Shown here one piece after another: positions 4,345 to 8,852 of a stretch of 38,482 nt of DNA. The notes beneath the pieces are model-generated. The model worked only from the letters and a program-made list of their open reading frames with translations. It was not told the origin of the DNA and did no database searches. The stretch is from sequence record SRR2962707_4308; one strand, given 5' to 3'. The first letter of the stretch is position 1, and each line of letters starts with the position of its first letter. The position numbers and the translations under genes are program-made.

Positions 4345-4416
4345 CTTTGGTGGGATTTCCGCAGAGTCCAGAAATAGGCTATGGTTCCGCCCTCACGAAA
4401 CAAGGAGAGCGTCACA

Positions 4417-5151
4417 TTGAAAGCATTAGTGAATACCCTCCTAGCCCTAGCGCTGATCGTCAGCGCCGGCACGGCACTGGCAGAGCTCGTCAAGAAATCG
4501 AAATCAGGAATCTGCCACCCACCCGCCAGCTCCTTCTACGAACGCACGAAGAACTATCAGGCTTTCGATTCTGTTCACGCCTGCATCCAGTCAGGCGGGC
4601 GCCTGCCAAAGAACATGAGCAGCTTTCGGCCGATAGCCAAGGCGGAAGTGTCCGCCAGACCTGCCGCCAGCAGTGGTTATGAGAGAAGCAAGTTCGGGCA
4701 TGGGTGGGATGATGCTGATGGAGATTGCCAGAACAGCCGCGCTGAAGCGCTGATCACTGCTTCAACGACGACCGTGAGGTTTGCGGACGAACGCCGCTGC
4801 AGAGTGGTTACCGGGCGCTGGATCAGCATGTTTACAGGAAACGTGATACAGAACGCCGGCGATATCGATATCGACCATGTGGTGCCCCTGAAGTGGGCCT
4901 GGGATCACGGCGCCAGCTCCTGGACTAAGGCAAAGAGGGAGAAGTTCGCGAACGATCCGGTAAACCTGATACCGGTAGAGGCCAGCCTGAACCGAAGCAA
5001 GGGCGCCCAGGGCCCAGAAGATTGGTTGCCGCCATCAGGTAAATGCCAGTATGTCAGCAGGTTTGTGAGAATTGTGCGAACCTATAACCTAGAGCCCTCT
5101 AAGGAGCAGTTCTACCGATATAAACAGCAGCTGGCATCGTTTTGTAGCTAA
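4417..5151 (+). CDS. Exported HNH nuclease (DUF1524-like) with small N-terminal Cys domain
   Basis: TTG start after AAGGAG; signal peptide ending ALA; DIDHVVP...ANDPVNL...LNRSKG. Confidence 0.8.
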   Translation: MKALVNTLLALALIVSAGTALAELVKKSKSGICHPPASSFYERTKNYQAFDSVHACIQSGGRLPKNMSSFRPIAKAEVSARPAASSGYERSKFGHGWDDADGDCQNSRAEALITASTTTVRFADERRCRVVTGRWISMFTGNVIQNAGDIDIDHVVPLKWAWDHGASSWTKAKREKFANDPVNLIPVEASLNRSKGAQGPEDWLPPSGKCQYVSRFVRIVRTYNLEPSKEQFYRYKQQLASFCS

Positions 5152-5168
5152 TATTTGGTTGATAACCC

Positions 5169-5870
5169 ATGAAGATTCTGAGCATCGCTGCGGCATTCGC
5201 AACAATAATGGTTTCCCAGGGGGCGCTATCACAAAATCGCCTACCAGATGCGCTTCATTGTGTAGGCGTGGAAAACGACATAGCCAGACTTGAGTGCTAT
5301 GACTCGGCCTACGACAGTTTCAGGGCTGCTGAGACGGCGCAAGACAACTGGCAAATCGTAGCTAAAACCAATCCTCTCGATGACACTGTAACCACGGTAT
5401 TTATCGTTGAATCATCTGGCGGCACGAGCCCCGTGTTCGGTGAGCACAGGTTGATCATCAGATGCCGCGGAAACGAGCTGAACATATGGATTGATTGGCA
5501 TCAGTTCCTCTCAACTGAAAGTGCCAGCGATGTAACCTGGAGAGTTGGTAAGCAGAAAGCGCAATCAGGGAAATGGCCACACGGGGCGAGCTCATCATCA
5601 CTGACGTTCTACCCCCATGATGAGCCGGAACTTGTGACTCAAATGATAGATTCTGATCAATTCGTAGCGCAAACGAAGGCGGCGACCGGGGACACTCTTA
5701 CAGCCATTTTCAACGTCAGGGGCTTGGAGCAAGCAGTCACGCCAATCAAAGACGATTGCTTGCAGGAGGATGCTCTGACACGCCCGGATTACATGAACAA
5801 AGAGATTTATGAGGCGTTGAAAAGTATCAAACAAAGAGATGAATACCGGTCCAGGTCAGAAGTGGAGTAA
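5169..5870 (+). CDS. Exported protein, T6SS VasI/TagO-like
   Basis: Signal peptide; CVGVENDIARLECYD; W...NPLDD; LIIRC. Confidence 0.6.
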   Translation: MKILSIAAAFATIMVSQGALSQNRLPDALHCVGVENDIARLECYDSAYDSFRAAETAQDNWQIVAKTNPLDDTVTTVFIVESSGGTSPVFGEHRLIIRCRGNELNIWIDWHQFLSTESASDVTWRVGKQKAQSGKWPHGASSSSLTFYPHDEPELVTQMIDSDQFVAQTKAATGDTLTAIFNVRGLEQAVTPIKDDCLQEDALTRPDYMNKEIYEALKSIKQRDEYRSRSEVE

Positions 5871-5910: not shown

Positions 5911-6393
5911 CTACTTGAAATCCACGTCGATGAGGTGGACATACCCTGTCAGAACCCCATCGGTAAACCTATCGATCGTGCCAGTAAAACGGATGACGTC
6001 TCCCTGGGATAGTATAAGCGCCCGATCGTCAGGAACTTCCTCGAGGTAATAATCGACTAGCGCCCTTCGATCACCGTCACTAAGCTCAACCCTATTACCC
6101 CGGTTGCCCTGCTCAACATCGATCACAGTTCCCAGCCAGGTCACTCGTTTGCCGACAAACTGAGATTTCTTGTCAGTCTCTTGGGCGGACGTGAGACCAG
6201 AAAGATAGATCTGATCCATCATCTGACCATAGGACAGGTCAATGTGTTCGGCCTGAAAGCCAGGGATCTGAAAGCTTTTGCTGAAAACGCCAGCCAGAGC
6301 ACCAACAGCCAAGACGATCATGAAGATCATCTTCGGCTTACTGGACTTGAGCTCGTCCCACATTTCGCTGGATGATTCCTTCTTCACAGCCAA
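5911..6393 (-). CDS. Membrane-anchored OB-fold-like protein
   Basis: One N-terminal TM; FVGKRVTWLGTVIDV and LSQGDVIRFTGTI strands. Confidence 0.55.
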   Translation of the reverse strand: MAVKKESSSEMWDELKSSKPKMIFMIVLAVGALAGVFSKSFQIPGFQAEHIDLSYGQMMDQIYLSGLTSAQETDKKSQFVGKRVTWLGTVIDVEQGNRGNRVELSDGDRRALVDYYLEEVPDDRALILSQGDVIRFTGTIDRFTDGVLTGYVHLIDVDFK

Positions 6394-6445: not shown

Positions 6446-6471
6446 AAGAAAAAGCCCGCTCTTTGGCGGGC
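6446..6471 (-). terminator. Intrinsic terminator closing the hicA-hicB-chaperone operon
   Basis: Minus strand GCCCGC-CAAAGA-GCGGGC-TTTTTCTT, just after the stop at 6476. Confidence 0.8.
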
Positions 6472-6475
6472 ACGA

Positions 6476-6937
6476 TTACTCTGCAACTGGTTTTTGAACC
6501 GGCCTCAACTGTAGCGGAATGGTAATGCTATCAATGCCCGCATCGAGAAGAATTTCTCTCAACTTACTGACAATCAGAGGGTCGATAACATTGCTGAAGG
6601 TTACCACCTCTTCATGCTCTAACTCATTCAGTCTCTTGCTCGTGATCCCGTGATCCGCGCCCAAGTCAAAGCGGCCCGTTCCTGCAAGTTCAATTTCGAT
6701 TATCACTTTGTCATCGGAATCAATGTCATCTTGACCCTCGGGAATGATCTTGACGAAAGCTGTCACAGTACAGTACAGAGAATTTGAATCGACTCCAAAT
6801 CTCAAGTTGGTTTCGATTGACAGGTCTCCACCATTATTGTCTATGCGATCATAACTCGGTATGTCAAACCGAATACGATGAAAACGCATTTCCACCAAGT
6901 GGTAGTTGTAAGCACAAACCTCAATGCTCATGTGCAC
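6476..6937 (-). CDS. SecB-like chaperone (start GTG 6937 or ATG 6931)
   Basis: ~150 aa, acidic; four alternating beta-strands (...IEIELAGTGRFDL) then helix and tail DPLIVSKLREILLDAGIDSITIP, resembling SecB FPYxRxxIxxxxxxGGFPxLxLP; overlaps hicB. Confidence 0.65.
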   Translation of the reverse strand: MHMSIEVCAYNYHLVEMRFHRIRFDIPSYDRIDNNGGDLSIETNLRFGVDSNSLYCTVTAFVKIIPEGQDDIDSDDKVIIEIELAGTGRFDLGADHGITSKRLNELEHEEVVTFSNVIDPLIVSKLREILLDAGIDSITIPLQLRPVQKPVAE

Positions 6938-7448
6938 GCCCCTGACCCAGCGAATAATTGCCTTTCAGCCCCTGAAAAATCTCCTCAGACCAGCTTAATC
7001 CTGCAGTTCGTGGTTCGTTCGACGTACGAACGCTACTTGCATAGAGGCTCGCTTGATATACGTGCTTCCTAATCTGGTCATTAACGTTTTCAAGAAACTT
7101 CTGCTGTGGATCATCTTCAACATATTCAGCGATGGCCCTTGTTACAGCGTCATTGATCGAAATGTCTTGCTCAGCTGCCTTGAACGCAATTCGCTTATGC
7201 AAGTCTGCCCCGATTCTAACGTTGAATGACCCTTTGAACGGCTTGTTGGGCTCAACTCCAAGTTCGGAGCAGGTTTCTAAGTAGTCATCGACCGCTGCTT
7301 CAAACTCTTCTTGCAGTTCGGCCGGGGAGCAGGCTTCATAGGTGACCAAATCGTTGATATACATTAGCTGGCCATACATGCAATTGGTCTCTGTATCCCA
7401 GTCAACAGAACCGATTTGGCCTTTGTAATTTAGTACCTTTGAACTCAT
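6921..7448 (-). CDS. hicB: HicB antitoxin (RHH type) with ~65-aa C-terminal extension
   Basis: YKGQIGSV...INDLVTYEA...FEAAVDDYLETC...PNKPFKGSFNVRIGADLH. Confidence 0.92.
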   Translation of the reverse strand: MSSKVLNYKGQIGSVDWDTETNCMYGQLMYINDLVTYEACSPAELQEEFEAAVDDYLETCSELGVEPNKPFKGSFNVRIGADLHKRIAFKAAEQDISINDAVTRAIAEYVEDDPQQKFLENVNDQIRKHVYQASLYASSVRTSNEPRTAGLSWSEEIFQGLKGNYSLGQGRAHEH

Positions 7449-7717
7449 TTTAAGAGCCCCCTCTCCTTAAGGGATTTCACAACGGCGTCAATAGCGCCGG
7501 GCTTTACATCAGGGCTGGGATGGGGATTATGCAGGCTTATGATCATTCGATCGCCATCCGGAGCCTCTGGTAGAAAATATTTTACGCGCGAGCCACTACC
7601 TTGGAGCTCTTCAAAGCCCAATGACTCTAAATATTTCTGTAATTGTCGCCACTTGATATCCTTTGGCGTTGGCTTTCGCTTTAGTTTTTCAGCGAATCTA
7701 TCCTGTTTGTTGCCCAC
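7445..7717 (-). CDS. hicA: HicA mRNA interferase toxin
   Basis: DIKWRQLQKYLESLGF...GSGSRVKY...LHNPHP; ATGA overlap with hicB. Confidence 0.92.
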   Translation of the reverse strand: MGNKQDRFAEKLKRKPTPKDIKWRQLQKYLESLGFEELQGSGSRVKYFLPEAPDGDRMIISLHNPHPSPDVKPGAIDAVVKSLKERGLLK

Positions 7718-7741
7718 AATTTTAGGTCCTGATTTCCCGAA

Positions 7742-7762
7742 TGCAACTAGAATTTAGTTGCA
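7742..7762. promoter_or_regulatory. Putative HicB autoregulatory operator
   Basis: Perfect inverted repeat TGCAACTA-N5-TAGTTGCA in the 55-bp cI/hicA gap. Confidence 0.7.
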
Positions 7763-7772
7763 AGCTTGTAAC

Positions 7773-8516
7773 TCATCGCAATACTGACCACCAAAAGACT
7801 CTTCCGATCAATCGCACATTGGCCGCCATCTCTTCAGCAGTCACTTCTTCAACTGGATGTTCACTCGCATTCTGGCTCACGATCTTGATGCCACCACCTG
7901 GTCGACGGTGCAGATACTTCACCCGAAGCATGCCACCATGGTCGATCGCGTAGATCTCGCCATCCTTAATGGTCTTATCGGCAGTGTTCACACCGACACA
8001 AGTACCATCCGGCATGACCGGTTCCATGGAGTTACCACGAACAAAGGCGCAGGCGGCGGCTTCAGCTGGCACACCGGCCCGGCTCAATGTGGACTTTGCG
8101 AAACGTAATTTGGCGCCGTGATTCTCTATAACCTGAGTAGCGCCACCTCCTGCCGCCAGCTCGACTTCCCTGAATAGAGGCAACTCTACTTCATCCTCAT
8201 CCAATGGCGTGTTGCTGTCCCAGGCATCCATGTGGCCGAAAAACTCTAATTCGTCTTCGACTACCTCGTTGCCGACAAGGTACTCAGCATAAGCCTGATA
8301 GGGCGATTTACTCCCTTCCCCAGAGATCATCCAGCCCAAGTCAGTTTTCAAATATGCAGCGAGCGCCTCAAGTTGCTCCAGAGACGGCTCTCGCCGGCCA
8401 CTCAGATAATGACCAACAGCGCCCCTTGTCCCAACACCAAGAGGCTCTTTGAGATCTTCCTGAGTCACCTTTCTTTCCCGCATAAGGGCGCGGACCCGAT
8501 CAAACCATTTTTCCAT
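7773..8516 (-). CDS. cI: CI-like repressor (HTH plus S24 autopeptidase)
   Basis: Start MEKWFDR at 8516; HTH; AAGGG cleavage region; VRGNSMEP Ser and RVK Lys. Confidence 0.95.
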   Translation of the reverse strand: MEKWFDRVRALMRERKVTQEDLKEPLGVGTRGAVGHYLSGRREPSLEQLEALAAYLKTDLGWMISGEGSKSPYQAYAEYLVGNEVVEDELEFFGHMDAWDSNTPLDEDEVELPLFREVELAAGGGATQVIENHGAKLRFAKSTLSRAGVPAEAAACAFVRGNSMEPVMPDGTCVGVNTADKTIKDGEIYAIDHGGMLRVKYLHRRPGGGIKIVSQNASEHPVEEVTAEEMAANVRLIGRVFWWSVLR

Positions 8517-8523
8517 GTTCTGA

Positions 8524-8610
8524 ATGGTACGCAATGTATCCAATCCGGCAAGGACACTTTTTGTATCCAAATCAGCTTGACTCGATACAGATGTATACAT
8601 ATCGTATCCC
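8524..8610. promoter_or_regulatory. OR operators with divergent pR and pRM
   Basis: pR TTGACT(8577)-N17-TATCGT; pRM (minus) TTGCCG-N16-TACCAT; sites GTAC/ACAC/ATAC-N5-GTAT at 8527, 8554 and 8595. Confidence 0.75.
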
Positions 8611-8612
8611 TC

Positions 8613-8852
8613 ATGAACATACAGACCTTCATCCAGCAAGTGGGGCCGGAAGTTGCAGCCAAGACGCTTGGCGTTTCTGTCTCCGCAATCAAGCACTACC
8701 GGAACGGTATCCGGCGGATCGCCCCTGCAAACGTTATTTCCGTCTGTGCATCGACCGGATGGAGAGTTACGCCGCATGAAGCGAGGCCGGACATCTACCC
8801 GAACCCTAGTGACGGACTCCCGGCGGATAAGCGCACCGGAGAGGCCGCCTGA
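8613..8852 (+). CDS. cro: Cro-like (YdaS-type) repressor
   Basis: 79 aa, divergent from cI; HTH; VTPHEARPDIY motif. Confidence 0.9.
   Translation: MNIQTFIQQVGPEVAAKTLGVSVSAIKHYRNGIRRIAPANVISVCASTGWRVTPHEARPDIYPNPSDGLPADKRTGEAA

Follow-up and report, generated by a model that had tools for sequence, protein, structure and literature searches.

A HicA-HicB cassette with a predicted SecB-fold partner in the post-cI slot of a Marinobacter prophage: a candidate toxin-antitoxin-chaperone system

What is the function of three overlapping genes that lie directly downstream of the repressor gene of a prophage in sequence record SRR2962707_4308? The window, that is, the whole stretch of 38,482 nt that was analysed, given as one strand from 5′ to 3′, is a temperate Marinobacter siphovirus prophage of the HK97 type, and the feature under study occupies positions 6446–7762. 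We consider it probable that these genes constitute a HicAB-type toxin-antitoxin-chaperone (TAC) module of three components, carried by the phage as an accessory cassette in the slot after cI and serving to abort phage infection; in the TAC architecture taken by itself our confidence is higher. The TAC reading is well supported computationally, and the defence role is a reasonable analogy for which the arguments appear roughly evenly balanced. The elements of the cassette and the repressor gene preceding it are the following.

7773–8777, minus strand: cI-type prophage repressor, matching HTH_3 (7.3e-8, residues 95–149) and Peptidase_S24 (2.2e-20) in Pfam and phrog_4 ‘transcriptional repressor’ (2.9e-49) in PHROGs.
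7742–7762, no strand assigned: perfect palindrome TGCAACTA-N5-TAGTTGCA, with arms of 8+8 nt that are 100% complementary, in the interval from the stop of cI to the start of hicA.
7445–7717, minus strand: hicA, 90 aa, basic (isoelectric point, pI, 9.74), GTG start with AGGA 9 nt upstream, matching Pfam PF07927 at 7.6e-11 and 42.4 bits (cut-off 27).
6921–7448, minus strand: hicB, 175 aa, made up of a core with a ribbon-helix-helix part (residues ~1–113) and a C-terminal tail, matching Pfam PF05534 at 4.2e-19 over residues 56–106, 68.6 bits (cut-off 21).
6924–7109, minus strand: tail of hicB, residues 114–175 (~62 residues), a candidate chaperone-addiction (ChAD) region that lies beyond the PHROG profile and is absent from short relatives.
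6476–6931, minus strand: predicted SecB-fold protein, 151 aa (ATG at 6931) or 153 aa (GTG at 6937), acidic (pI 4.58), a candidate chaperone of the SecB-TA (toxin-antitoxin) type according to its AlphaFold2 (AF2) model and Foldseek and VIA comparisons.
6454–6471, minus strand: intrinsic-terminator-like hairpin GCCCGC-CAAAGA-GCGGGC with 6 G-C pairs, followed by TTTTTCTTAT, located 5 nt beyond the third gene's stop codon.

The first-pass annotation of this DNA had described three overlapping minus-strand genes bracketed by a perfect palindrome and a terminator, and every one of these elements was recovered at the position given for it. The genes form one operon in the order toxin-antitoxin-SecB-like chaperone, with a single terminator after the third gene. 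The hicA stop and the hicB ATG overlap as ATGA, and the end of hicB overlaps the third gene by 17 nt when the GTG start is used or by 11 nt when the ATG start is used. The ATG at 6931 is the more likely start, because the homologues begin with MST, the database copy is 151 aa long, the ESM Atlas entry runs from that residue, and AGGGG is situated 7 nt upstream. The order toxin-antitoxin-chaperone is repeated in two further loci, L004 and L005.

L004, 63–2725, a second prophage-like region, in the related genome G001: cI-like S24 repressor, HicA (89 aa), HicB (179 aa), and chaperone (144 aa).
L005, in another Marinobacter species: integrase fragment, HicA (95 aa), HicB (167 aa), and chaperone (156 aa).

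The window type and L004 represent two related prophage-like regions with different alleles of the cassette. Regarding the control of the operon, the palindrome lies in the 55-nt gap between the cI stop (7773) and hicA and is unique in the 38.5-kb window even when up to two mismatches are allowed, 0.01 matches being expected by chance. It is also found upstream of hicA in L004, where it is perfect, and in L005, where one arm has a mismatch; it is kept in L005 even though the surroundings of that locus are unrelated to the window, with the integrase fragment in place of cI. Since the palindrome is conserved, HicB has a ribbon-helix-helix part, and known HicB proteins, free or in HicAB complexes, act as repressors of their own promoters (excerpts of PMC11594946), the palindrome is a candidate operator, to which HicB would bind with its ribbon-helix-helix domain. 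A scan found no terminator between cI and hicA, so co-transcription of the cassette with cI is possible. A sigma-70-like promoter was likewise not found by scan on the minus strand upstream of hicA, where inspection by eye gave weak candidates only.

The product of the first gene belongs to the HicA family. In addition to a PF07927 score above the gathering cut-off, it matched phrog_8887 ‘toxin’ (1.5e-19), and its AF2 model (predicted local distance difference test, pLDDT, 86.4) has the HicA fold, which resembles a double-stranded RNA-binding domain, with the order helix, helix, three strands, helix. When the model was compared with the PDB by Foldseek, the top rows were the HicA toxins 6g26_E, 1whz, 4c26, 4p78_C, and 6hpb_A; for the B. 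pseudomallei entry 6g26_E, E was 0.041, the template modelling score (TM) by target was 0.75, and the root-mean-square deviation (rmsd) was 2.3 Å over 63 columns. This search returned no row at E ≤ 0.001, the HicA rows having E values of 0.04 and above, and the clade to which the window HicA belongs did not match the solved HicAs by sequence.

Several findings weigh against the interpretation given above, and the first group of them concerns the active site of this toxin. The HicAs studied to date carry a Gly-x-His motif in which both Gly and His are required for toxicity, the catalytic residue being His23 in EcHicA, His24 in BpsHicA, His28 in YpHicA3 of Y. pestis, and His36 in StpHicA of S. 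pneumoniae (excerpts of PMC11594946). The window HicA reads G42-S43-R44 at the corresponding place, and this column in 29 aligned HicA open reading frames (ORFs) of the clade holds 25 Arg, two Ala, one Cys, and one misaligned residue, with His in 0 of 29. The hhalign comparison puts E. coli His23 opposite a gap beside R44, at a probability of just 9%, and pairs E. coli ‘RHP’ with H66-P67 at that same 9%. HicA RNase activity is not to be assumed, because the canonical catalytic His has been replaced; the ‘HicA RNase effector’ of the first-pass annotation is thus sustained as to family, by PF07927 and Foldseek, and loses its catalytic His. In the titles and abstract openings of four papers on the HicA catalytic histidine, the Gly-Ser-Arg variant is not addressed.

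An explanation that would take these findings at face value is that HicA of this clade, having exchanged its catalytic His for Arg, is not an RNase toxin and that the cassette is degenerate or has been repurposed as a TA-like regulator. The substitution in a motif needed in studied HicAs and the missing sequence-level link to any solved HicA favour this explanation, which we nevertheless regard as extremely unlikely in view of how the clade is distributed and conserved. It is widespread, being present in 62 of the 401 sampled genomes of the class, and is nearly always accompanied by a HicB partner (26 of 29 sources). An alignment of 28 members shows no variation at G42, S43, and H63 and at least 90% conservation at R44, P65, H66, and P67, which includes an H-x-P-H-P motif bearing H63 and H66. 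In the model, R44 opens the strand 44–49 and H63 closes the neighbouring antiparallel strand 58–63; an antiparallel pairing of the two, as read from the secondary-structure string and not from coordinates, would bring H63 beside R44, so that a His could sit near the old site. Moreover, a dedicated antitoxin and chaperone would have little purpose without a toxin. The abundance of the clade, its constant pairing with HicB, and the conserved residues speak for a toxin that is active and whose site has been modified, here taken to be an RNase.

The second gene encodes a HicB-family antitoxin whose ribbon-helix-helix part is followed by an unusual extension. The match to phrog_9151 ‘HicB-like antitoxin’ (7.2e-42) covers residues 4–113 only, and RHH_1 was found in Pfam at residues 75–111 with an E value of 0.045, under its cut-off. 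The tail is absent from the aligned relatives of 116–117 aa, and the HicBs of Marinobacter two-gene systems have 116 aa; the antitoxin therefore has what is typical of TAC systems, a variable C-terminal extension that two-component homologues lack. Aromatic residues number 6 in the tail of the window HicB (of 62 residues) and 6 and 3 in the tails of the other two triads. The window tail contains the stretch HVYQASLY and a Trp and ends in His.

The third protein is the component on which the TAC reading depends, and its identification was obtained through structure prediction. The AF2 model (pLDDT 82.4, predicted TM 0.75) consists of four long strands, which build a four-stranded antiparallel sheet, followed by a helix of 25 residues, with no helix after residue 132; the SecB strand/helix pattern noticed in the first-pass annotation is thereby borne out. 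That annotation had also proposed a Foldseek comparison with SecB and Rv1957, and this gave 22 PDB rows at E ≤ 0.001, headed by 5mtw_A (Rv1957, the chaperone of the M. tuberculosis TAC) at E 2.6e-5 and TM 0.64/0.70 and followed by the SecB proteins of H. influenzae and E. coli. The 13 matches listed at this threshold were SecB or Rv1957 chains, with two SecB-like proteins of unknown function. In the VIA alignment, the model reached Z 11.6 against 5mtw_D, with an rmsd of 2.6 Å and 125 aligned residues of a 136-residue chain, and Z 10.7 against E. coli SecB 1qyn_D (10.6–10.7 for the SecB structures 1qyn, 1fx3, and 1ozb), the best unrelated fold having Z 6.1. The ESM Atlas model, made by a different predictor, matched SecB clusters at TM 0.67–0.72, and the top rows in the viral library BFVD were siphovirus proteins named ‘SecB’. 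Additionally, a family member from Marinobacter alkaliphilus bears the UniRef name ‘Preprotein translocase subunit SecB’ (one source). In the C-terminal part, for which the first-pass annotation had proposed a SecB-like motif, the family conserves G134 and P141-L-Q-L144. According to these predicted structures, the third protein has a SecB fold, and it is likely homologous to SecB.

On the opposing side, the third protein showed no trace of SecB at the sequence level. It had no match in Pfam (E ≤ 1), NCBIfam, PADLOC, PHROGs, or, by phmmer, the PDB sequences; ten members of its family had no Pfam match either (E ≤ 1), and a profile search of the PDB sequences with the family gave 14-3-3 proteins only, at E 0.7. 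The SecB model PF02556 does not recognize it and, when applied to the related G001 genome with a limit of E ≤ 10, picks up the housekeeping secB alone; the hhalign comparison of the family with the G001 SecB had a probability of 0.1%. Identity in the structural alignments with Rv1957 and SecB is just 9–13%. Because no sequence similarity is detectable, the homology to SecB is an argument from predicted structure. The SecB-like folds of unknown function 2hng and 2o2a also score highly in VIA, with Z 9.6 and 9.5, respectively. The family is also rare: nine representatives were found at E ≤ 0.001 among 1.84 billion proteins and three clusters among 5.8 billion proteins, and it occurs in one of 400 sampled genomes of the class and in two of 191 genomes of the genus. 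One of the nine representatives, an SdrD-like protein of 1,653 aa, was regarded as probably unrelated. When 50,697 phage records and 72,556 plasmid records were searched by tblastn, no relative was returned, so no wider ‘defence island’ statistic can be drawn from them. A metagenome scan with the family alignment found nothing; a 38-residue metagenome match to P0006 (L039) was rejected as spurious, as it overlies a membrane-protein gene on the other strand.

The high scores of 2hng and 2o2a, together with the lack of a sequence link to any SecB-TA, leave room for a protein that has the SecB fold and is not a dedicated chaperone of HicB, for instance a general phage holdase, an export chaperone, or a DUF1149-like protein; hicAB would then be an ordinary two-component TA whose antitoxin is long-tailed by chance. 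The ESM Atlas feature matches, which were mostly to unnamed clusters, with DUF1149 in 11% of the members of one of them, are in line with this possibility. We consider it very unlikely, since Rv1957, itself a TAC chaperone, is the protein that it matches best in structure and since the genomic association with the HicB tail, described next, is difficult to reconcile with it.

The association between tail and chaperone was examined in a survey of HicA-clade loci, for which 32 sources were scanned for ORFs, namely the window, L004, L005, and 29 loci from the class-genome search (L009–L037). A HicA ORF match was obtained in 29 of the 32, and a HicB was adjacent in 26 of these 29. The chaperone family was present in three of the 26 HicA-HicB sources (window, L004, and L005), whose HicBs have 167–179 aa, and absent from 22 of them, whose HicBs have 107–131 aa. 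Thus, in genomes the family was found only beside long-tailed HicBs (3/3 loci), never at the 22 short-HicB loci, and its gene is coupled to hicB by an overlap of reading frames in 3/3 loci. Six metagenomic homologues of the chaperone were on contigs of the same sizes (4721, 19510, 84952, 21545, 2667, and 9661 bases) as six long HicBs of 166–180 aa; since the sizes are equal, chaperone and HicB are most likely on the same contigs, which would add six cases to the three. Between the three triads, identity was 50–61% in the HicB core, 18–21% in the HicB tail, and 19–40% in the chaperone. Tail and chaperone thus co-occur strictly and diverge in step, a pattern that matches the specific, sequence-variable ChAD/SecB-TA pairs of Bordes et al. 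(2016) and, in view of the aromatics kept in each tail, the recognition of aromatics in HigBAC.

One source departs from this division. At L009 (G342:C1), a HicB of 155 aa (minus strand, 1761–2228) has a long Pro- and aromatic-rich tail likewise ending in His and is followed by an overlapping 105-aa ORF (2206–2523) that is unrelated to the chaperone family; this ORF may encode a tail partner of a different type or may have arisen by chance. Long tails therefore exist without a SecB-like neighbour, which is a further point in favour of a chaperone not dedicated to HicB, as is the weak outcome of the complex prediction. When four chaperone copies were modelled with HicB residues 110–175, the score was 0.46 (runs of 0.46, 0.46, and 0.34) and the best of three controls was 0.00. 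In the benchmark of this score, 51 of 78 solved complexes attained the mark, as did two of 108 mismatched pairs; at scores of 0.60 or below, it was reached by only five of the 78 solved complexes and by all four of the mismatches that passed (of 180). The agreement of contacts between runs was at least 47%, the partner pLDDT was at least 44, and family alignments were not used as input. As a like complex has been solved (5mtw), the pass may reflect likeness to it. The grade given to chaperone-tail binding is ‘weak support’, which speaks for a TAC at this locus and, being no more than weak, also counts among the points against it.

For a HicAB-TAC, which remains our preferred reading of the three genes, we infer that HicB depends on the chaperone, that the palindrome works as an operator, that HicA is toxic, that the lysogen expresses the genes, and that the module acts against phages upon a trigger. 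The three translationally coupled genes would be made together; the N-terminal core of HicB would neutralize HicA, and its ribbon-helix-helix domain would bind the conserved palindrome and repress the operon. The tail of ~62 residues would destabilize the antitoxin unless the SecB-fold chaperone holds it, so that titration of the chaperone would expose the tail. The most likely titrating agent would be a structural protein freshly synthesized by the infecting phage, by analogy with HigBAC, in which the tail protein gpV competes with the ChAD and so acts as the trigger through the chaperone (10.1101/2024.02.24.581848), and with CmdTAC, in which newly made capsid protein acts as the trigger through the chaperone (excerpts of PMC11618068). 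Loss of HicB would then free HicA, arrest the cell, and abort the infection.

Would such a module defend the lysogen, or does it serve another purpose? The slot is informative in this respect. The first-pass annotation had placed the cassette after cI, in agreement with the presence of HTH_3 and Peptidase_S24 in the upstream repressor; this S24 (self-cleaving peptidase) protein is encoded directly upstream of hicA on the same strand. The prophage genes recognized in the window comprise the integrase (113–1189), cI, an O-like replication initiator, the large terminase, the portal, a head protease, the major head protein, the major tail protein, and the tape measure, and the cassette is part of the accessory region that separates int from cI, next to genes for a LuxR-type regulator, a VasI-like protein, and a GmrSD_C/HNH-like protein. 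A prophage likewise encodes HigBAC of E. coli NT1F31 (10.1101/2024.02.24.581848), at a variable locus that its lambdoid phage has immediately downstream of cI, the slot of rexAB in lambda. HigBAC combines an RNase-type TA pair, a ChAD-bearing antitoxin, and a SecB-like chaperone, the same arrangement as predicted in the window, and aromatics in its ChAD drive recognition, to be compared with the 6 aromatics in the 62-residue tail of the window HicB. In contrast, its toxin and antitoxin are HigB and HigA in place of HicA and HicB, and both its defence against lambda-vir and Bas25 and its triggering by gpV have been demonstrated, whereas the window cassette is known from sequence.

The other anti-phage TACs resemble the cassette in logic more than in parts. 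In E. coli, CmdTAC and MqsRAC give protection against T-even phages, MqsRAC acting against T2 (Vassallo et al. 2022, PMC9519451), and the three-gene logic with the chaperone as sensor of infection, as described in excerpted reports of these systems, is proposed alike for the window; extra chaperone inhibits the protection given by CmdTAC, according to the same excerpts. Their toxins are an mRNA ADP-ribosyltransferase in CmdTAC and MqsR in MqsRAC, in contrast to HicA in the window, and the two systems have been validated experimentally. As far as defence is concerned, what the cassette has in common with CmdTAC, MqsRAC, and HigBAC is its position only, the accessory region after cI of a prophage, as in HigBAC, and the description ‘lysogen-expressed abortive defence’ may be taken as an argument from analogy and position. 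PADLOC gave no match for any of the three proteins, a result that adds to the findings against the defence reading as regards recognition by known models and neither supports nor excludes a defence role.

The main rival to defence is a genuine HicAB-TAC with a role in prophage addiction or stabilization, in which cells that lose the prophage or no longer express it would be arrested, or in stress-responsive growth control. The founding TAC, HigBA1-SecB-TA of M. tuberculosis, and the Methylomonas HicAB-TAC are described as stress-responsive TA systems and not as defence in the excerpts of PMC5105189. Similarly, a HicAB of a Paracoccus prophage stabilizes plasmids, and testing of a diverse panel revealed no phage that the HicAB-like pair of mycobacteriophage Adephagia targets (both in excerpts of PMC11594946). 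The present data are silent on any phage trigger. We consider this rival unlikely, given that the three TACs reported as phage-tested, CmdTAC, MqsRAC, and HigBAC, were all protective in the portions of the reports available, and that the cassette is among the accessory genes between cI and int, the slot of HigBAC and of lambda RexAB. An integrated prophage gains little from post-segregational killing, which also counts against addiction.

How much of this is new? TAC systems join a SecB-like chaperone to a HigBA or MqsRA module or, more rarely, to a HicAB module (excerpts of PMC5105189). The cassette unites a TAC type and a prophage slot that are both known, and the HicAB-TAC type, the slot after cI, and the logic of TACs are all in print. 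The first-pass annotation had held that HicAB-linked SecB-like genes were only predicted, which is corrected by the functional HicAB/SecB-TA of Methylomonas methanica MC09 (Mmet-TAC), published in 2016 as one of four TACs functional in E. coli assays, with transplantation of the ChAD region (Bordes et al. 2016, excerpts of PMC5105189). As in the window, Mmet-TAC (Metme_2813/2812/2811) has toxin and antitoxin of the HicA and HicB families and the order toxin-antitoxin-chaperone. Its ChAD spans residues 119–159 of the antitoxin, compared with a tail of ~114–175 in the window, and its chaperone gene has 486 nt, compared with 456–462 nt. In contrast, the Mmet-TAC chaperone is a SecB homologue able to replace E. 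coli SecB, whereas neither the Pfam SecB model nor profile searches detect the window protein; the excerpted description of Mmet-TAC does not present it as prophage-borne or phage-tested, whereas the window cassette is carried by a prophage. With Rv1957 (5mtw) and the housekeeping SecB, the window protein shares the predicted fold of a four-stranded sheet followed by a long helix, and it is acidic.

The statement in the first-pass annotation that no HicAB-type TAC had been characterized in defence is in agreement with the literature. A full-text literature search found no HicAB-type TAC tested in phage defence, and in the excerpts of the 2024 HicAB review (PMC11594946) a defence role of HicAB is merely proposed, none being validated, and neither SecB nor a chaperone is mentioned. 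The sequence-orphan chaperone clade was also not in print according to the full-text search. If the cassette protects lysogens, chaperone-sensed TAC immunity would be extended to the HicA toxin family and to marine Marinobacter prophages. A more specific proposal, that the rare sequence-orphan SecB-fold clade is a sensor of phage proteins controlling a HicA whose catalytic His has moved to His63 on the neighbouring strand, appears doubtful to us; if true, it would make the cassette the first abortive-infection TAC built on HicA and would give the HicA family a second layout of the active site, the His63 layout being common to a clade in ~15% of the sampled genomes of the class. The Gly-Ser-Arg clade poses a testable question in its own right, RNA cleavage without the canonical His. 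Likewise, the three diverged tail/chaperone pairs of the window, L004, and L005 would provide a natural specificity series for the co-evolution of ChADs and SecB-like sensors, and censuses of TACs based on Pfam overlook SecB-fold proteins of the kind revealed by structure prediction alone. Taken as a phage-defence system, the cassette is a good but unsurprising candidate.

The long HicBs are not restricted to those with this chaperone family. The proteins P0052, P0063, P0085, P0091, P0095, and P0128 (146–161 aa) carry tails that are rich in His, as in H-H-x-H-H-H-Y-H, and contain a Trp close to the terminus; they probably pair with other chaperone clades; one of these His-tailed HicBs comes from a metagenome-assembled genome labelled by NCBI as Methylobacter sp. 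None of 12 long HicBs checked carried the C-terminal residues of the Methylomonas HicB, as deduced from the reverse primer published for it.

The closest public DNA to the window is a near-identical prophage of Marinobacter nauticus DSM 50418, with a third protein that is 99% identical; the same element is present as an IMG/VR provirus record. This prophage was the sole return of a search for related loci with the chaperone-family alignment. With respect to the repressor, the cI-like ORF is listed as 334 aa, its helix-turn-helix begins only at about residue 95, and the L004 counterpart diverges upstream of the S24 domain; because of the late helix-turn-helix and the difference from L004, the N-terminus is probably too long as listed and the real start an internal Met. 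The divergent promoter region towards 8904 (plus strand) would therefore be larger than the ORF list suggests. In L004, the S24 domain is almost identical to that of the window repressor, and a GmrSD_C-like homologue and a LuxR-type gene follow on the opposite strand. The following genes lie next to the cassette in the window.

5911–6393, minus strand: ORF of 160 aa with one hydrophobic segment, directly downstream of the terminator, with OB-fold-like Pfam matches below threshold.
5169–5870, plus strand: VasI-like protein (type VI secretion accessory), 233 aa, with a signal-peptide-like N-terminus, PF11319 at 6.2e-8 and phrog_1848 at 1.5e-19.
4381–5151, plus strand: protein with a GmrSD_C/HNH-type nuclease domain, 256 aa, with a hydrophobic N-terminus, PF07510 at 1.3e-12.

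The ORF at 5911–6393 has no PHROG or PADLOC match and is absent from the L004 arrangement. The VasI-like gene is an odd passenger for a prophage. Finally, a homologue of the GmrSD_C-like gene adjoins the cassette in L004, and the gene at 4381–5151 may be a further one with an accessory or defence-related role in these prophages.

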